A stretch of 42,750 nucleotides of DNA. Source: an uncultured Candidatus Saccharibacteria bacterium. GTDB taxonomy: Bacteria; Patescibacteriota; UBA1384; XYA2-FULL-43-10. Positions within the stretch are counted from its first letter, which is position 1. Each line of letters opens with the position of its first letter. Of this stretch, positions 27,927 through 36,744 are shown piece by piece. The notes beneath the pieces are model-generated. The model was given only the letters and a program-made list of their open reading frames with translations, was not told where the DNA came from and did not search any database. The stretch is taken from contig CAZLCL010000004.1 of the NCBI GenBank assembly GCA_964558315.1, positions 7,221-49,970 on the forward strand, given 5' to 3'. Position numbers and translations under genes: made by a program.

Positions 27927-29653
27927 TTTTTGGCGTCTAAACGATAATAAAAATTAAGTAAAAATGAAGATATATCTCCAAAAACAGGGGCCGCTGTGCT
28001 TTCAGCATATTTCGCGCTCTTGGGTCTATCTAGCTTTACAAGCATGGTATATTTTGGATTTTCGGTTGGAGCGAATCCTGCCAAAGAGTGAATAAAAATT
28101 CCCAGCCCAGACTCATTTTGCTCATAACCACCTTCGGGATTCGCAATTTGCGCAGTCCCTGTTTTAGCTCCCACAGAAAAGCCTTCGACCTGAGCCCTTT
28201 TTGAATGTCCATTTTCTACTACCTGTCTTAACATCTCGGCAATTACCGCAGATGTTTGCTCGGAAATTATCCGAATACCCTCTTTTTTCTCAACCTTTTT
28301 TTCAGTTCCATCGGGTAACAATATTCTATCCACGAGATGAGGATACACATAAACTCCTCTGTTTGCAATAGCCGTGTAGGCCGCTACAATTTGCAAGGGT
28401 GTAACTGCAATACCTTGGCCAAAAGCTATTGTAGCGCGATTAATATCTCTCCACTCTTTAACCGGTTTAGTATAGCCGGAAACTTCGGTGTCCAAATCAA
28501 TCCCGGTCTTATCTAAAAAATTAAAATTTTTTAGATATTCATACATCGTTTCTTTCCCAAGCAGTTCAGATATCCAAACCATAGCAACATTATCTGAATT
28601 TTGTAATACCTGAACCATATTTTCTTTACCAAAAGCTTTTCTTTCCGCAGTTTTAATCTCATAGTTATCCACCCAGACATGCCAATCAAATTCACTTTCT
28701 GTCTCTGCTGTAATTAAACCTTTATCAATAGCGGCCGACATAATTATCGGTTTAAAAATACTTCCGGGCTCATACAAATATGCTATTGCCGGATTAATAA
28801 ACCTTTCAGGATTTTCTTCGGCCACCAGCCGATACTGATTTGGGTTATAATTTGGCAAACTGGCCATAGCCAAGATCCCTCCCGTTTCTACATCCATAAC
28901 AATAATTGTGCCAGATTCGGCTTGATATTCTTCTAACGCCTCAGCTAATTTTTTTTCTACGTAATATTGCACAGAACGATCTATAGTTAAAATATAACTG
29001 GCACCATCTTGCGCGTCTTTTTTATTTAACAAAGAAATTACTCTTCCTAAAGTGTCTTTTTCTCCAATTTTAAGTCCGCTTGATCCCTGAAGCTCCTTAT
29101 TGTAATGCCCCTCAAAACCATAATTTCCTTTGTTTTCAGCATTAACAAAACCTAGCAAATGAGAAGCCAAATTCCCTTCGGGATAATACCTGCTATTTTC
29201 GGGCACGATAATCACACCAGAAATTTTCTCTGATTTAATACTTTGCGCTGTATCATAATCTAAGCCCTTAGCTAGAGGAGGGATATAAAGTTTCTCATTG
29301 TTAATTTTTGAGAATAACTCCTCTTCAGCCACATTTAACAAAGCAGATAGTTTGCTAGCCACCTCTAATTTGTCTTTTATCTGCTTTGGGACAGCCCAAA
29401 CTTGATATTTTTTAACATCAAAAGCTAAAGGATACAACGAACCTTCCTCTTCGATAGCATCATGGGCATAAATTCTTCCCCTTTGAGCGCTCTCTGTCTC
29501 TTCAAATCTTTGCTGTTCTTCAGCTAAGGCAACATATTTATCATGCTGGATAATTTGTTTCTCAAACATTCTACCAATGATTACGAGCATAAGAAAAATC
29601 ACCAGAACACCTGCGACACGAAAACGTGCTTCAATTTCATTATCTAAGTTCAT
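27923..29653 (-). CDS. ftsI: Class B penicillin-binding protein (FtsI/PBP2-type transpeptidase)
   Basis: N-terminal TM anchor; SIFKP (SxxK), SDN (SxN) and KTGTA (KTG) motifs. Confidence 0.85.
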   Translation of the reverse strand: MNLDNEIEARFRVAGVLVIFLMLVIIGRMFEKQIIQHDKYVALAEEQQRFEETESAQRGRIYAHDAIEEEGSLYPLAFDVKKYQVWAVPKQIKDKLEVASKLSALLNVAEEELFSKINNEKLYIPPLAKGLDYDTAQSIKSEKISGVIIVPENSRYYPEGNLASHLLGFVNAENKGNYGFEGHYNKELQGSSGLKIGEKDTLGRVISLLNKKDAQDGASYILTIDRSVQYYVEKKLAEALEEYQAESGTIIVMDVETGGILAMASLPNYNPNQYRLVAEENPERFINPAIAYLYEPGSIFKPIIMSAAIDKGLITAETESEFDWHVWVDNYEIKTAERKAFGKENMVQVLQNSDNVAMVWISELLGKETMYEYLKNFNFLDKTGIDLDTEVSGYTKPVKEWRDINRATIAFGQGIAVTPLQIVAAYTAIANRGVYVYPHLVDRILLPDGTEKKVEKKEGIRIISEQTSAVIAEMLRQVVENGHSKRAQVEGFSVGAKTGTAQIANPEGGYEQNESGLGIFIHSLAGFAPTENPKYTMLVKLDRPKSAKYAESTAAPVFGDISSFLLNFYYRLDAKK

Positions 29654-30873: not shown

Positions 30874-30898
30874 CCACTTTATCCCACTTTTTACCACT
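30874..30898 (-). promoter_or_regulatory. MraZ operator: three AGTGG boxes phased at exactly 10 bp
   Basis: Plus-strand CCACT lies at 30874-30878, 30884-30888 and 30894-30898. The minus strand reads AGTGGTAAAA AGTGGGATAA AGTGGAATAC, about 160-180 nt upstream of the mraZ ATG. Confidence 0.65.
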
Positions 30899-31009
30899 AG
30901 CTTACATATTAGACCTGTATGGCTATTTGGTCAAAGCATAAATAATCCATTTTTGTGGATAAAGTTGTGGACAAATACTTGTATATAAATATTTCTAATA
31001 CAGCATTAA

Positions 31010-31081: not shown

Positions 31082-32455
31082 CTATAATTTTTGAGTAATT
31101 AAGCTCGCAATTTCCTGAATCTTAACCCTTTGTTGCTTCAAAGTATCCCTGTCTCTAATTGTTACAGTATTATCATTGAGACTATCGAAATCAACTGTAA
31201 CGCAAAAAGGAGTCCCAATCTCATCTTGACGACGATAGCGTTTTCCGATATTGCCGTTATCATCAAATTCACAAACAAAAGACGTTTTGAGATCGTCAAA
31301 AATTTGTTTTGCCATATTAACAAGCTCGGGCTTATTCTTTAACAGCGGGAAAATTGCCGCCTTAACTGGGGCAATCTTTGGCGGGAATTTCATCACAACT
31401 CTTTTACCATCCCCAACAGTCTCTTCGCAATATGCACTATCTAAAGCAACTAAAATACTACGATCTAATCCAAAAGTCGGCTCCAAAACATGTGGTATAT
31501 ACTTCCGATTTGTTGCCTCATCAAAATACTCGAGCTTCTCTCCGCTTTTCTCAGAATGAACCTTCAAATCAAAATCACTACGATGAGCCAATCCGAATAA
31601 CTCCTTAAAGCCAAAAGGATATTGATATTCAATATCTACTGTTTTTTTGGAATAGTGGGAAAGTTTTTCTTTGGGATGTTCATATCTTCTCAAATTTTCT
31701 TTGACCGCTCCAATCTCAATGGCAAATTCCTCTTGTAAATCTAGCCACTCCGAAAAAATCTCTTGCCAATTACTGTCGGGAGAAATATAGTATTCTATCT
31801 CCATCTGCTCAAATTCTCGAAGTCTAAAAATAAAATTTCCGGCTACAATTTCGTTTCGGAAAGCTTTGCCGATTTGAGCCACTCCAAAAGGAATCTTTTG
31901 GCGTGTGGAGTCTAAAATATTTTTAAATTCAATAAAAATAGCACCGGCAGTTTCTGGCCGTAGATATGCCACTGCCTCATCCCCAACTCCGGTAGTATTC
32001 ATGTTAGTCTTAAACATCATGTTAAAATTTCTTACCTCACTCCAATTCCGTTTGCCACAATTTGGACAATTAACCTTGTCATCAAGCATTTTTTTCATTT
32101 GCTCTAATTTACCCTCTAAGTCCTGCCCAGTAGCATCTTCGACAATATTGTCAGCCCTGAACCTGCTTTTGCACTCCTTGCAATCCACCATAGCATCATT
32201 AAAACTGGTGGTATGGCCACTAGCCTCCCATAACCTTGGGTGAAGAATAATAGGGCCGTCAATCCCAACAATATCCGATCGGTTGTTTACAAATTTTTTC
32301 CACCACAAATCTTTAATATTCTTTTTTAACTCCGAGCCGTAAGGACCGTAGTTATATGAGTTAGCAAAACCGCCATATATCTCAGATGCACTATTTACGA
32401 AGCCTCTCCTCTTGCAGAGAGATACAATTTTTTCCATCCTGTCTTGATCAGCCAT
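31082..32455 (-). CDS. glyQS: Glycine--tRNA ligase (dimeric class II, GlyQS type)
   Basis: 457 aa. It starts with an N-terminal RRGF..SSEIYGG-like segment (RRGFVNSASEIYGGFANSYNYGPYG). Class II motifs follow (FRNEI, GLDR). An anticodon-binding C-domain closes the protein. Confidence 0.9.
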   Translation of the reverse strand: MADQDRMEKIVSLCKRRGFVNSASEIYGGFANSYNYGPYGSELKKNIKDLWWKKFVNNRSDIVGIDGPIILHPRLWEASGHTTSFNDAMVDCKECKSRFRADNIVEDATGQDLEGKLEQMKKMLDDKVNCPNCGKRNWSEVRNFNMMFKTNMNTTGVGDEAVAYLRPETAGAIFIEFKNILDSTRQKIPFGVAQIGKAFRNEIVAGNFIFRLREFEQMEIEYYISPDSNWQEIFSEWLDLQEEFAIEIGAVKENLRRYEHPKEKLSHYSKKTVDIEYQYPFGFKELFGLAHRSDFDLKVHSEKSGEKLEYFDEATNRKYIPHVLEPTFGLDRSILVALDSAYCEETVGDGKRVVMKFPPKIAPVKAAIFPLLKNKPELVNMAKQIFDDLKTSFVCEFDDNGNIGKRYRRQDEIGTPFCVTVDFDSLNDNTVTIRDRDTLKQQRVKIQEIASLITQKL

Positions 32456-32523
32456 ATTTTTCCTCTTTAATATTCTAGCCAGATTTTATCCTATTTTAAG
32501 CCAAACGTAAACAATGATGCTCA

Positions 32524-32544
32524 ACCAGCTAACGCAGGTGGTTT
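32524..32544 (-). repeat. 21-nt hairpin module, copy 2 (degenerate)
   Basis: Plus strand ACCAGCTAACGCAGGTGGTTT matches 19 of 21 nt with 32741-32761. Confidence 0.7.
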
Positions 32545-32623
32545 CTGGGTTCAACGGGCTAATGCCCTCTTTTGTCATCCTGAGTGAAACGAAGGATCTG
32601 TTTACCATTAACGCGGTGATGGG

Positions 32624-32656
32624 ATTCTTAACCCGCTGATTCAGCGGGTTAAGAAT
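32624..32656 (-). other. Perfect 14-bp stem-loop in the glyQS leader region
   Basis: ATTCTTAACCCGCT (32624-32637) pairs with AGCGGGTTAAGAAT (32643-32656) across a 5-nt loop. No U-run follows on either strand. Confidence 0.8.
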
Positions 32657-32740
32657 GACAGAGTATGGTAGAGAATGTATTTTTTCTTAAGTTATTGTAT
32701 ATGCATCTGATTGCATAATGCTAATGCTTTAAACGCATAC

Positions 32741-32761
32741 ACCTGCTTACGCAGGTGGTTT
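32741..32761 (-). repeat. 21-nt hairpin module, copy 1 (7-bp stem; GUAA tetraloop when read on the minus strand)
   Basis: Plus strand ACCTGCTTACGCAGGTGGTTT. The stem is CACCTGC/GCAGGTG at 32740-32757. The loop is TTAC on plus, which is GTAA (a GNRA loop) on minus. Confidence 0.7.
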
Positions 32762-32780
32762 ACCTTGTAGGTAAGGCGTT

Positions 32781-32808
32781 GGTGCCCCGATATTGTCATC
32801 GGGGCACC
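32781..32808 (-). other. Perfect 11-bp GC-rich stem-loop immediately 3' of the 53-codon ORF
   Basis: GGTGCCCCGAT (32781-32791) pairs with ATCGGGGCACC (32798-32808) across a 6-nt loop. There is no U-run, so it is not a canonical terminator. Confidence 0.8.
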
Positions 32809-32824
32809 ATGGCTCTATCAGGCA

Positions 32825-32986
32825 TCAGCGCAGACGTTTTTCGACTTTTGCCATGACATGATTGTAGTTGGCAAGAGCCCTTTGGCAGTAATTCTGCCGG
32901 CGTAATTGAGCAAGAGCTTGTTGCTCAGCCCTTTGCGCTCTTGCCGTTTTGCCACTATTGCGAAACGCTACCTGATGTTGAGTCAC
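32825..32986 (-). CDS. Candidate small basic protein (53 aa, GTG start), unknown function
   Basis: Hand translation gives VTQHQVAFRNSGKTARAQRAEQQALAQLRRQNYCQRALANYNHVMAKVEKRLR. A strong SD, AAGGGAGGAAG, sits 7 nt before the GTG. Codon choice is GC-rich and unlike neighbouring genes. It is below the ORF-track cutoff and could be a chance ORF in a structured RNA. Confidence 0.35.
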   Translation of the reverse strand: MTQHQVAFRNSGKTARAQRAEQQALAQLRRQNYCQRALANYNHVMAKVEKRLR

Positions 32987-33040
32987 GATTCTTCCTCCCT
33001 TGTATTCGTTCCGGGATGACGAAAAATCACCAACCCAGAC

Positions 33041-33076
33041 AAAAACAAAAAAGCCGCCGGTAGACTTGGCGGTTTT
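33041..33076 (-). terminator. Intrinsic terminator after the island-1 micro-ORF
   Basis: Minus strand reads AAAACCGCC-AAGTCTAC-CGGCGGC followed by TTTTTTGTTTTTG. The GC stem lies at 33053-33058 / 33068-33073. Confidence 0.7.
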
Positions 33077-33098
33077 AATGTTTAACTATATTTAAAGA

Positions 33099-33197
33099 TT
33101 ACACTAAAACCACCCGTTTACCCACGACCACAACACAAACTAGAGCACCTGATTGCTTTGATAAAAAAATCGCTCTATTTTGCATTATTTGTTTCAT
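33099..33197 (-). CDS. Candidate leaderless Val-rich micro-ORF (32 aa), possible leader peptide
   Basis: MKQIMQNRAIFLSKQSGALVCVVVVGKRVVLV. The ATG begins 8 nt after the -10 hexamer, with no SD. The last codons overlap a sequence complementary to the terminator 5' arm. Confidence 0.3.
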   Translation of the reverse strand: MKQIMQNRAIFLSKQSGALVCVVVVGKRVVLV

Positions 33198-33204
33198 TTT
33201 TATC

Positions 33205-33233
33205 ATATTACCAGCCTGATTTTTCCAGGTCAA
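33205..33233 (-). promoter_or_regulatory. Sigma70-like promoter of island 1 (TTGACC-17-TAATAT)
   Basis: On the minus strand, TTGACC lies at 33233-33228 and TAATAT at 33210-33205 with a 17-nt spacer. Confidence 0.55.
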
Positions 33234-33324
33234 CTATGATCCGAAAATATTCTTCTAATGATTGTGCGGCTATAACCAATTTTACAAAGAAAAGGCATAA
33301 TTATCTAACACCACTCATTTTTAA

Positions 33325-33364
33325 AACACAATAATTTGATACGATCGTTGCAATCTATTGTGTT
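33325..33364 (-). repeat. 40-nt hairpin repeat, copy A (overlaps the stop codon of the PaaX-like gene)
   Basis: AACACAATAATTTGATACGATCGTTGCAATCTATTGTGTT has a 9-bp stem AACACAATA/TATTGTGTT. The 22-nt loop contains the palindrome ACGATCGT. 34 of 40 nt are identical to copy B. On the minus strand it is followed by TTTTAAAAAT. Confidence 0.8.
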
Positions 33365-33879
33365 TTGAAAATTTTTTTGAGCTCATTCTCAATATCTGTT
33401 TTTTCTACAACAAAATAAGCTACAAATTTTTCAACCTCGTGCATTTTAATCACTAAAATTTCATCATCAGCTTTATTATAAGGGCAAGCCCACAAACTCT
33501 TCTGAACTTGGCGGAAACCAATCTGTTTAATTGATCGTCTAAATCGGTCTCTTCTTTTTCTGAACTCCTCGGGAATATCGAAGGACAATATCCGCCACCT
33601 ACCGTCCGAAGATTTATCTTTAGAATTCTCTAAGCATTTAATATTTCCCTTATCCGTTAGAACAATCGAGTTATTATTGATTTTAATATAACCACTTTTT
33701 TCTAAATATTTAATTCTTTCGCTAAACCTGGTTATTCTGAAACCTTTTAGCTCAATCTGTTCACATAATTTATTTGGAGTTAAAAAAGCGTGACCAACTA
33801 CAAAAGGAAAATTTACAATAACTTCCAGTATTGTTAAACTGATATCTCTAAGAATAATTTTTGTCTTTGGATTTTTCAT
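33355..33879 (-). CDS. PaaX-family-like regulator (N-terminal winged HTH + C-terminal PaaX_C / Cas2-like fold domain)
   Basis: DGRWRILSFDIPEEFRKRRDRFRRSIKQIGFRQVQKSLWACPY matches the PaaX C-terminal pattern W.G.W.lv.fdiPe..r..Rd.lrr.L...GF..l..s.W..P. The N-terminal part has an HTH-like RFSERIKYLEKSGYI. Confidence 0.7.
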   Translation of the reverse strand: MKNPKTKIILRDISLTILEVIVNFPFVVGHAFLTPNKLCEQIELKGFRITRFSERIKYLEKSGYIKINNNSIVLTDKGNIKCLENSKDKSSDGRWRILSFDIPEEFRKRRDRFRRSIKQIGFRQVQKSLWACPYNKADDEILVIKMHEVEKFVAYFVVEKTDIENELKKIFKTQ

Positions 33880-33911
33880 TTACCTCAAAAAGTCAAAATT
33901 CTTAATAATCA

Positions 33912-33951
33912 AACCCAATGTTTTGATACGATCGTTGCATATTATTGTGTT
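33912..33951 (-). repeat. 40-nt hairpin repeat, copy B (between recO stop and the PaaX-like gene start)
   Basis: AACCCAATGTTTTGATACGATCGTTGCATATTATTGTGTT has the same 18-nt loop core TTTGATACGATCGTTGCA as copy A. The stem has one mismatch. Confidence 0.8.
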
Positions 33952-36269: not shown

Positions 36270-36310
36270 TGGAAAAAGAAAAGTCCGCCCGCCGGGTCGG
36301 CGGGCGGACT
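36270..36310 (-). terminator. Strong intrinsic terminator closing island 2
   Basis: A perfect 13-bp GC-rich stem AGTCCGCCCGCCG/CGGCGGGCGGACT (36282-36294 / 36298-36310) with a 3-nt loop, followed on the minus strand by TTTTCTTTTT. Confidence 0.85.
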
Positions 36311-36336
36311 GGATCTCATAATGCTACTGCGACCCC

Positions 36337-36549
36337 TTAGCACCTCCGGTGCTTCCATGCACCGGTGTTAATTTCTTGCTCCATACACTTGGGACAACCC
36401 GGTTGACTACATTGAATGCATCTTTTGAGGGTGTTCCGCGCAACCGGCGGGTCGGCTTTGGGCCTCGGTCCATGGAGCCCAGCCCCGCAATGAGGGCATT
36501 TCTTCTCCGCGTTCACGCCGTTAACTCTTGATGCAGACCTCTTTGCCAC
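36337..36549 (-). CDS. Candidate small CPxCG-type zinc-finger protein (70 aa, GTG start)
   Basis: VAKRSASRVNGVNAEKKCPHCGAGLHGPRPKADPPVARNTLKRCIQCSQPGCPKCMEQEINTGAWKHRRC, with SD AAAGGGG 6 nt before the GTG at 36549. The longer ATG-start version in the ORF track (to 36642) would run through a terminator hairpin. The sequence is very GC-rich (40/60 at 36421-36480) and could instead be structured RNA. Confidence 0.4.
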   Translation of the reverse strand: MAKRSASRVNGVNAEKKCPHCGAGLHGPRPKADPPVARNTLKRCIQCSQPGCPKCMEQEINTGAWKHRRC

Positions 36550-36600
36550 AGATATCCCCTTTCGTGCTGTATTGAAAAGCGTATGCCCTTCAAGCAGAAC

Positions 36601-36623
36601 AAAAAAACCGCCTTTTGGCGGCT
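36601..36623 (-). terminator. Intrinsic terminator after the island-2 micro-ORF
   Basis: Minus strand reads AGCCGCC-AAAA-GGCGG followed by TTTTTTT. Confidence 0.8.
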
Positions 36624-36649
36624 GATCTTTAGATGTCTGCAACGAAGAA

Positions 36650-36709
36650 TCAACCGCTGTGCGGACAGATTAGAATAACACCAATAATAAGTGATTCTGA
36701 TCGCTTCAT
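36650..36709 (-). CDS. Candidate leaderless micro-ORF (19 aa), possible leader peptide
   Basis: MKRSESLIIGVILICPHSG. The A of the ATG is the 7th nt after the TATAAT hexamer. The stop-codon region GCGGTTGA is complementary to the terminator 5' arm. Confidence 0.25.
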   Translation of the reverse strand: MKRSESLIIGVILICPHSG

Positions 36710-36715
36710 GTTAAC

Positions 36716-36744
36716 ATTATATCATATGTAGCAATAAATGTCCA
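36716..36744 (-). promoter_or_regulatory. Sigma70-like promoter of island 2 (TGGACA-17-TATAAT)
   Basis: On the minus strand, TGGACA lies at 36744-36739 and TATAAT at 36721-36716 with a 17-nt spacer. Confidence 0.55.

Follow-up and report, generated by a model that had tools for sequence, protein, structure and literature searches.

A possible leader-peptide attenuator with a leaderless upstream open reading frame in a Saccharibacteria spacer ahead of glyS

INTRODUCTION

Can a ribosome that starts on the first nucleotides of a transcript decide, by the place where it halts, whether RNA polymerase passes a terminator further on? The question is raised by a stretch of 42,750 nucleotides (nt) from an uncultured Candidatus Saccharibacteria bacterium (contig CAZLCL010000004.1 of assembly GCA_964558315.1, positions 7,221 to 49,970); this whole stretch is called the window below, and all coordinates refer to it. 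An initial annotation noticed, between 33041 and 33233, a leaderless Val-rich micro-open reading frame (micro-ORF) followed by an intrinsic terminator and a competing pairing. We call this element island 1 and read it as a possible ribosome-mediated (leader-peptide) transcription attenuator, in which a leaderless upstream ORF (uORF1) gates an orphan small protein; our confidence in this reading is a little short of even.

Island 1 is on the minus strand, within an unusually long spacer of 899 nt (32456-33354) flanked by the gene of a PaaX/Cas2-like regulator (33879-33355) and by glyS (32455-31082). The window comes from an AT-rich genome (~34% GC), corresponds to JGI contig Ga0247854_1000119 (158 kb) and has a housekeeping gene content (tRNAs, mraZ, class II GlyRS, recO, fpg); the GC content of the island 1 spacer climbs to 0.51. 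Among the matches listed, the closest relatives of GlyRS are found in metagenome-assembled genomes of Patescibacteria, or candidate phyla radiation (CPR).

RESULTS

The promoter P1 (33205-33233, minus strand like all features of island 1) is made of a -35 box TTGACC (33233-33228), a 17-nt spacer and a TG-extended -10 box TGgTAATAT (33213-33205), a 9/12 match plus TG. The hexamer TAATAT itself covers 33210-33205. Seven nucleotides on, an ATG stands at 33197, and the predicted +1 is 33198 or 33197. The arrangement TTGACC-17-TAATAT with a start within 1 nt of an ATG, from which the initial annotation set out, is present, with the +1 on the A or 1 nt ahead of it. That ATG opens uORF1 (33099-33197), predicted to be leaderless, with 32 codons, the translation MKQIMQNRAIFLSKQSGALVCVVVVGKRVVLV and the stop TAA at 33101-33099. 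The length of 32 codons is as first given; the number of Val codons is eight and not nine. The main run, V20-C-V-V-V-V25 (codons 20-25, 33140-33123), ends 9 nt ahead of the anti-terminator core described below. The GC contents at the three codon positions (0.52/0.27/0.30) are like those of the host genes. In its 32 codons and its run of Val, uORF1 is reminiscent of the ilvB and ilvG leaders. The resemblance of the peptide tail to ilv leader peptides, also claimed at first, holds for the composition, but BLASTP gave no alignment of any kind.

There is no Shine-Dalgarno (SD) sequence ahead of uORF1; the AUG is at the predicted 5′ end, 7 nt past the TG-extended -10 box, and the first 10 nt of the leader RNA, AUG included, are unpaired in the minimum-free-energy (MFE) folds. 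Translation would thus have to begin on a leaderless AUG. About half of the 35 larger genes of the window are without a recognisable SD sequence, so that SD-independent initiation is plausible in this organism. In several genes (e.g., with starts at 29653, 37832, 25600, and 39202), a -10-like hexamer occurs 6-8 nt ahead of the ATG. Such hexamers, together with the SD-poor starts, are hints from the sequence that leaderless mRNAs may be common here. The hexamers of P1, TTGACC-17-TAATAT, recur in a promoter upstream of mraZ (30874-30934, minus strand), ahead of three GTGG(T/G/A) repeats with a 10-nt spacing (30897, 30887, and 30877), the pattern expected of MraZ operator boxes.

Past uORF1, two pairings compete for the same strand. 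The short intrinsic terminator (33041-33076) has the stem CCGCC (33072-33068) and GGCGG (33058-33054), a 9-nt loop, flanking A/U pairs and the tract C-U6-G-U5 (33053-33041). Its arm AAAACCGCC begins 22 nt past the stop codon, as the initial annotation had it, and the GC stem is followed by the U-run. In the anti-terminator core (33068-33114), GGUGGUUUUAGUGU (33114-33101), which spans codons 28-32 and the initial base of the stop, forms 14 base pairs (bp) with ACAUUAAAACCGCC (33081-33068) at -17.7 kcal/mol. The core shares 33072-33068 with the terminator and sequesters in this way the 5′ arm of the latter. A pairing of 9 bp with one G-U had been proposed; the pairing does exist, but it is longer, with 14 contiguous pairs, and stronger. 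When the RNA is not translated, the core is extended by GGUA/UACC and by a lower stem GGUCGU (33129-33124)/GCGGCU (33057-33052), with the formation of a long hairpin of ~26 bp (33052-33129) that ends flush with the U-tract. The pair probability of the lower stem is 0.97 in the free RNA. Another hairpin, hairpin 1 (33130-33188), is present in the MFE folds inside uORF1 (codons 4-23); in these models it is possibly a pause hairpin or a 5′ structure. The fold of the whole leader (166 nt) has a z-score of -6.6, with 0 of 200 shuffles equally stable, and that of the 91-nt 3′ part has a z-score of -4.2.

The effect of a ribosome was simulated by folding the RNA between the +1 and the U-tract while the nucleotides under the ribosome footprint were barred from pairing. 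With a ribosome at the stop codon (mask 33119-33087), the CCGCC/GGCGG terminator forms, and among the masked folds it forms under no other condition. With the A site on V22, V23, V24, or V25, the 14-bp core forms (12 bp for V25) and the terminator is blocked. With no ribosome, the long hairpin forms against the U-tract, and on these folds it is probably termination-competent, in a way analogous to superattenuation. The claim that a ribosome at the stop masks the anti-terminator, and that an earlier stall frees it, is therefore borne out in the constrained folds: in silico, the switch between the two pairings depends on the position of the ribosome. One could suspect that Val codons inside the anti-terminator spoil the logic; this is so for V29, V30, and V32 only, V20-V25 being outside. 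In silico, the leader has a Val cluster upstream of the anti-terminator strand, an intrinsic terminator and a mutually exclusive anti-terminator, as expected of an attenuator.

On the other hand, the long hairpin ends at the U-tract and may itself be no more than a small-RNA terminator. This leads to the main rival to attenuation, an element acting as RNA only: a structured RNA of ~150 nt with two long hairpins, either a small RNA or a leader with a constitutive or otherwise controlled terminator. The AUG and its frame would be incidental, the Val run would reflect G/U-rich arms, and the small ORF downstream (ORF53, see below) would be expressed by leak-through. The MFE fold of the free RNA, hairpin 1 followed by the 26-bp hairpin abutting the U-tract, with the stability and the lower-stem probability given above, is what such an element would show. 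The spacer is, moreover, rich in hairpins over its entire length: the 745-nt RNA 32456-33200 folds with a z-score of -9.6 versus shuffles, due to perfect hairpins of 11-15 bp (32808-32781, 32757-32740, and 32652-32622). Leader-peptide attenuators are also a minority among leaders with premature terminators (PMC2965389). We consider the RNA-only element rather unlikely; the points that stand against it are given below, after the description of a second locus.

That locus, island 2 (36744-36282, minus strand), is in a second GC-rich spacer (36941-36215), and its architecture repeats that of island 1. The leader (36598-36744) contains in the same order a promoter P2, a short ORF (uORF2), an anti-terminator and a terminator. 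P2 (36744-36716), TGGACA-17-TGaTATAAT, is an 11/12 match plus TG, better than any other promoter match of the window. Six nucleotides past its -10 box, the ATG at 36709 opens uORF2 (MKRSESLIIGVILICPHSG, 19 codons, stop UGA at 36652-36650), which is rich in Ile, Leu and Val and carries the run L-I-I-G-V-I-L-I. The anti-terminator (36657-36648 with 36627-36618; 10 bp, -12.2 kcal/mol) has the UGA inside its 5′ arm and shares part of its 3′ arm with the 5′ arm of a canonical terminator (36623-36606), AGCCGCC-AAAA-GGCGGUU followed by U7. The two energies are similar (-12.2 vs. -11.5 kcal/mol), and as long as the 3′ arm of the terminator has not been made, the nascent RNA has the anti-terminator as its MFE structure. 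The gene that follows, ORF70 (36282-36560), has an SD sequence AGGGGA (36560-36555) and a GTG start at 36549; it codes for a Cys-rich protein of 70 amino acids (aa) with three CxxC motifs and is followed by a 13-bp terminator (36310-36282). Its AlphaFold2 prediction is of low confidence. No homologue of ORF70 was found in the protein cluster searches, nor any match in Pfam, NCBIfam, PADLOC, or PHROGs.

Between the two islands, BLAST finds no similarity, and MAFFT aligns only the terminators (CCGCC/GGCGG and U-run). In both, 29 nt separate the stop codon from the terminator stem, and the run of branched-chain codons ends 9-12 nt before the anti-terminator. Judged on sequence, island 2 looks like an independent, non-homologous replicate, within one genome, of the layout of island 1.

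How often such a layout arises by chance was estimated with 4000 dinucleotide shuffles per leader, in which we counted an ATG 6-9 nt past the -10 box opening an ORF of at least 15 codons with its stop 15-45 nt ahead of the terminator. This was observed in 22/4000 shuffles for island 1 and in 64/4000 for island 2. When the stop had in addition to be at a strand pairing with the terminator arm, a step for which the criteria were set after seeing the data, 2-3/4000 remained. The same features were looked for in 1.49 Mb of fetched loci, by scanning for a strong promoter with a terminator 40-230 nt further on. Other genomes gave about 24 units of this kind; two of them have an ATG near the +1, which is the chance rate, and neither has the stop-to-terminator geometry that is present in both units of the window. 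A relaxed scan of ~58 kb of the source genome gave no further module. In the ~16 kb beyond the window (loci L165 and L168), with an rRNA operon and pilus genes, there is one promoter-to-terminator unit (L165:1865-2007). It is located ~400 nt upstream of the 23S rRNA, with a strong TG-extended promoter, an RNA of ~105 nt and a CCGC/GCGG terminator. It has no AUG at the +1 and no Rfam match and may be an unclassified small RNA. The neighbouring 23S rRNA gene (L165 2419-8305) is 5.9 kb long, pointing to ~3 kb of insertions or introns; insertions in the 23S rRNA are typical of CPR bacteria.

For the RNA-only element, the unit upstream of the 23S rRNA is a point in favour, as it indicates that short terminated RNAs without uORFs exist in this genome. 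Island 2, however, turns the same reading into a series of coincidences: an ATG at the +1, open frames of 32 and 19 codons, stops within the anti-terminator arms, and the spacing of 29 nt, twice. Also, a structured RNA of this kind finds no family in Rfam (see below).

The two peptides could themselves be the functional products. Under this alternative, the islands would hold leaderless genes for small proteins of 32 aa and 19 aa, for example membrane-active or regulatory, the hairpin would do no more than end the transcript, and the stop would overlap the pairing by accident. The ATG at the +1 and the open frame, in both islands, agree with it; both peptides start with MK and have a short hydrophobic stretch of V, I, L, and C, and uORF1 resembles the host genes in its codon-position GC. 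But hydrophobic stretches of ~10 residues are too short for a membrane helix, no homologues and no family matches were found for the peptides, and nothing in this alternative accounts for a promoterless next gene or for the position of the stop codons within pairings competing with the terminator. No antisense partner was recognised: on the strand opposite uORF1 there are an incidental frame of 58 aa (33158-33334) and a promoter-like site with a 9/12 match (33179-33206), but neither seems to stand out from chance, and neither was examined further. We regard a small-protein gene as improbable. A type I toxin-antitoxin system was rejected on similar grounds: the hydrophobic stretch of ~10 residues is interrupted by KR, and no antitoxin-like antisense unit was identified.

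The gene that would be regulated by island 1 is ORF53 (32825-32999), with the SD sequence GGGAGG (32999-32994), a gap of 7 nt and a GTG start at 32986, 54 nt past the U-tract; the product is basic, with 53 aa. No promoter-like site was found between the terminator of island 1 and ORF53. With its strong SD sequence, ORF53 would therefore depend on read-through. Its codon-position GC contents (0.63/0.43/0.43) are coding-like, and a gene is called there also in the assembly of L001, an independently assembled metagenome of the same strain. AlphaFold2 predicts a single long helix (predicted local distance difference test, 86), which is uninformative. Among 5.8 billion protein clusters, ORF53 matches only itself, and it is without match in Pfam, NCBIfam, PADLOC, or PHROGs. 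Sequestration of its SD sequence by the U-tract was considered and rejected, the fold not being significant (z = -1.7). A GC-rich hairpin of 11 bp without a U-tract (32781-32808) follows ORF53. This hairpin may stabilise the 3′ end or act as a weak stop, and transcription may run on toward glyS, through ~250 nt of hairpins and repeat debris and then the promoter-like sites and the SD sequence of glyS.

Is the element, then, a dedicated regulatory leader of glyS, analogous to the glyQS T-box of Firmicutes or to the pheST attenuator? It is on the same strand and upstream of glyS, and the hairpin of ORF53, with no U-tract, leaves read-through to glyS possible. The distance between them, however, is ~590 nt, with an SD-led ORF, several hairpins and repeat debris, and glyS has promoter-like sites and an SD sequence of its own. 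The peptide has only two Gly, no T-box or other leader family is recognised, and the orthologous glyS genes listed have spacers of 70-150 nt without the element. We hold a glyS leader to be very improbable. The position upstream of a small ORF and of glyS, as given in the initial annotation, is correct, but the link to glyS is weak, and a direct role of the element in glyS control is not supported.

Searches for known families bear on all these readings. At gathering thresholds, nothing was found with Rfam in the whole window, and a relaxed search (E-value up to 10) of both islands gave no family. The amino-acid leaders of Rfam (Phe, Leu, His, Thr, and Trp) do not reach their gathering scores; the best match is Phe_leader (22.5 bits vs. 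a cut-off of 55, E = 0.52), on the terminator hairpin only. T-box leaders give no match in 32300-33500 even at E up to 10, and large non-coding RNA families are excluded by the Rfam searches of the window and of both islands. A type III toxin-antitoxin system was also rejected: the leader is free of tandem repeats, and the downstream ORF has 53 aa and no PADLOC match, versus ~170 aa for ToxN-like proteins. The proteins scanned with PADLOC, ORF53 and ORF70, gave no match. uORF1, searched as an extended micro-ORF of 44 aa, has no homologue among the 5.8 billion protein clusters and belongs to no Pfam or NCBIfam family.

For the comparison of loci, relatives of GlyRS were collected from GTDB (185k species genomes; at least 80 loci) and from metagenomes (at least 80 loci). 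Among the matches listed, the closest relative (L003, 81%) is on a contig that ends 220 nt upstream of glyS, and these 220 nt are non-coding and unrelated to island 1. In the relatives listed with at most 70% identity, neither BLAST nor tblastn detects similarity to island 1, and among the GlyRS relatives listed no homologous locus was found in which conservation or covariation could be followed. On this sequence comparison, island 1 looks lineage-specific. Viral contigs have no match to the ORFs of the islands; the DNA of the islands has no match in phages and, in plasmids, matches by a 27-nt repeat only.

Another alternative is non-functional inserted DNA, in which the GC-richer spacer of ~900 nt would be a lineage-specific insertion with mobile-repeat debris and fortuitous features. 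The island is absent from the relatives listed other than L003, the spacer contains the 27-nt repeat, identical to copies on cyanobacterial plasmids, as well as a 21-nt direct repeat, and promoter-like hexamers occur at the chance rate. And yet island 2 repeats the design, its promoter being near-consensus and its terminators canonical; the shuffle statistics speak against chance; ORF53 has a periodicity of codon-position GC and a strong SD sequence; and in the independent L001 assembly the island is identical but for seven substitutions in the repeat-bearing segment. An inert insertion is, in our opinion, hardly a probable explanation of the island as a whole.

The seven substitutions between the window and L001 are all at ~32580-32625, inside and just upstream of the 27-nt motif TGTCATCCTGAGTGAAACGAAGGATCT (32573-32599; inverted repeat 32655-32573), which belongs to a widespread short repeat of the GTCATYCTGAG type. 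The motif is 100% identical to multi-copy repeats within genes of Planktothrix and Gloeothece plasmids and resembles a match in locus L050; a literature search for it returned primer matches only. The 21-nt direct repeat AACCACCTGCGT(A/T)AGC(A/T)GGT, itself a small hairpin, occurs at 32741-32761 and 32524-32544. Its two copies bracket ~200 bp with the GTCATYCT repeat, which suggests a small insertion inside the spacer. A palindrome of 41 nt, AAACACAATA..GCAACGATCGTATC..TATTGTGTT, is present in two copies, 85% identical (33324-33365 and 33911-33951), on either side of the PaaX/Cas2-like gene. One copy overlaps the recO stop; the other overlaps the stop of the regulator itself, ~90 nt upstream of P1. 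These palindromes could be operators of the PaaX/Cas2-like regulator or bidirectional hairpin terminators.

DISCUSSION

Attenuation is favoured because it alone makes joint use of all the features shared by two unrelated sequences, namely an AUG at the predicted +1, frames open exactly as far as the anti-terminator arm, matching stop-to-terminator spacings, a run of branched-chain codons, and a promoterless, SD-led gene. Several observations weigh against it. There is no comparative support: the DNA of the islands matches only the same strain (L001 and L165), the other GlyRS relatives listed (at most 70% identity) have glyS spacers of 70-150 nt without the island, and the micro-ORF, ORF53, and ORF70 are all without homologues. 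The promoter and the +1 are predictions from sequence, and in DNA as AT-rich as this, sites with 9/12 hexamer matches occur at about the chance rate (76 vs. 61, 64 vs. 66, and 60 vs. 48), so that P1 is raised above chance solely by its TG extension and its context. The terminator stem of island 1 is marginal (5 bp with a 9-nt loop, -8.6 to -11.4 kcal/mol) and was overlooked by the consensus scanner, the loop being longer than 8 nt. The energetics are lopsided, with an anti-terminator probability of 0.99 in the free RNA of island 1, and the long hairpin itself abuts the U-tract. In island 2 the imbalance is of the other kind, the terminator winning every masked full-length fold (pair probabilities of 0.93 vs. 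0.03).

The link to valine is a further difficulty. The genes under the proposed control are orphans, and nothing connects them with valine or the other branched-chain amino acids: downstream of uORF1 the first gene is the orphan ORF53 and the next is glyS, which is not related to Val. The Val codons sit, besides, in the G/U-rich arms of two long hairpins, and the run may be a by-product of RNA structure. Of the classical attenuation layout seen by the initial annotation, the terminator/anti-terminator geometry and the ribosome logic hold in silico; no connection with valine metabolism was found. The RNA-only element gains from the same points, namely the orphan nature of every ORF, the missing functional link to valine and the lopsided energetics.

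The mechanism that we propose starts from sequence features, alternative pairings, energies and a design repeated in island 2, all of which are observed. From these we infer the transcription start, the leaderless translation, the termination efficiencies and the identity of the signal. Transcription from the TG-extended promoter would begin at ~33198/33197, and the RNA would open with the AUG of the 32-codon ORF. With smooth translation to the UAA, the ribosome would cover ~33119-33087, including the 5′ arm of the 14-bp anti-terminator; with this arm masked, the CCGCC/GGCGG hairpin would form before the U-tract and transcription would end, with an RNA of ~150 nt. A ribosome at a stop codon is known to repress only terminators located a few bp downstream (PMC4824070), with which the spacing of 29 nt is compatible. 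With a stall in V20-C-V-V-V-V25, on the other hand, the leading edge of the ribosome would be at ~33119-33113, and the anti-terminator (33114-33101/33081-33068) would be free to sequester the terminator arm. RNA polymerase would then read through to the SD-led ORF53 and possibly on toward glyS. Without translation, the anti-terminator would extend to the long hairpin flush with the U-tract, which should terminate, in resemblance to superattenuation. The simplest signal would be the supply of charged tRNA-Val, and any slowing of elongation at these codons would be equivalent.

Extended to both islands, the attenuation reading suggests a set of self-contained "sensor cassettes". Each would consist of a strong promoter and a leaderless uORF rich in branched-chain codons, with its stop embedded in the anti-terminator, gating an orphan small protein. 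The products, a basic helix of 53 aa and a Cys-rich protein of 70 aa, are not those of biosynthetic genes, and the cassettes would act as starvation or translation-stress switches for lineage-specific effectors, and would have originated two or more times, in sequences that are not homologous but share the 29-nt spacing. We put this extension forward tentatively, as somewhat doubtful.

The layout functionally matches classical leader-peptide attenuators, yet it belongs to no sequence family. As in the enterobacterial attenuators (trp, his, leu, thr, pheA, ilvBN, ilvGMEDA; also pheST, for an aminoacyl-tRNA synthetase), there is a short ORF with a codon run, predicted to be promoter-proximal, and a terminator before the structural gene. 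The anti-terminator shares a strand with the terminator, is masked by a ribosome at the stop and freed by a stall on the codon run, and the untranslated RNA has a fold that is probably termination-competent. The differences are many. There is no SD sequence, the AUG is at the predicted 5′ end, and neither the sequence nor Rfam indicates a relationship. The downstream gene codes for an orphan 53-aa helical protein instead of belonging to a biosynthetic operon, and the host is of the CPR type, with little biosynthetic capacity expected. Unlike in the 1:2/2:3 arrangement of trp, hairpin 1 shares no strand with the anti-terminator, and the anti-terminator of island 1 is thermodynamically far stronger than the terminator.

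Closer to island 1 in their initiation are the leaderless polycysteine short ORFs of mycobacteria (the "Cys ribulon" of Canestrari et al.), which are established as sensory uORFs (10.1101/834739). They share with island 1, as proposed, a leaderless sensory first cistron, a run of codons for one amino acid, and a stalled ribosome that remodels the RNA to switch on the next gene. There, however, the stalled ribosome is reported to act on translation, by blocking structures that sequester the ribosome-binding site, whereas here an intrinsic terminator would be controlled. In that account (10.1101/834739), the mycobacterial uORFs precede genes of cysteine metabolism and are conserved across species; here, neither a metabolic link nor conservation was found.

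The uORF attenuators of Firmicutes that respond to stress (ermK, vmlR, bmrCD, lmo0919, and the mef/mel type) also combine a uORF with a terminator and an anti-terminator, and a stall leads to read-through (e.g., PMC4335068). In the mef/mel type, the signal need not be an amino acid (PMC4335068). Unlike uORF1, these uORFs have SD sequences, and they precede resistance genes (rRNA methylases, ABC-F proteins, efflux pumps), none of which is found in the window. Finally, termination by default would release here a structured RNA of ~150 nt with a small ORF, which could act in trans as does rnTrpL of Sinorhizobium (PMC6614838). This parallel, purely an analogy, bridges the attenuator and the small-RNA readings.

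Should the element be an RNA-only leader or a small RNA, it would be an ordinary orphan element of one strain. If attenuation is real, it would be a known mechanism, varied, in an unexplored lineage. CPR bacteria, or Patescibacteria, depend on hosts for amino acids, and to our knowledge their gene regulation is almost unexplored. The layout gives a pattern that can be searched for in other genomes, in which a TG-extended promoter is followed by an AUG at the +1 and by a short ORF that stops ~29 nt ahead of a terminator. If the reading is true, control of transcription by ribosome sensing exists in the CPR/Patescibacteria radiation, and it can combine leaderless uORFs with intrinsic terminators. 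Such control would be wired to orphan small proteins and not to biosynthetic operons, and would make of these proteins effectors induced by starvation or translation stress.

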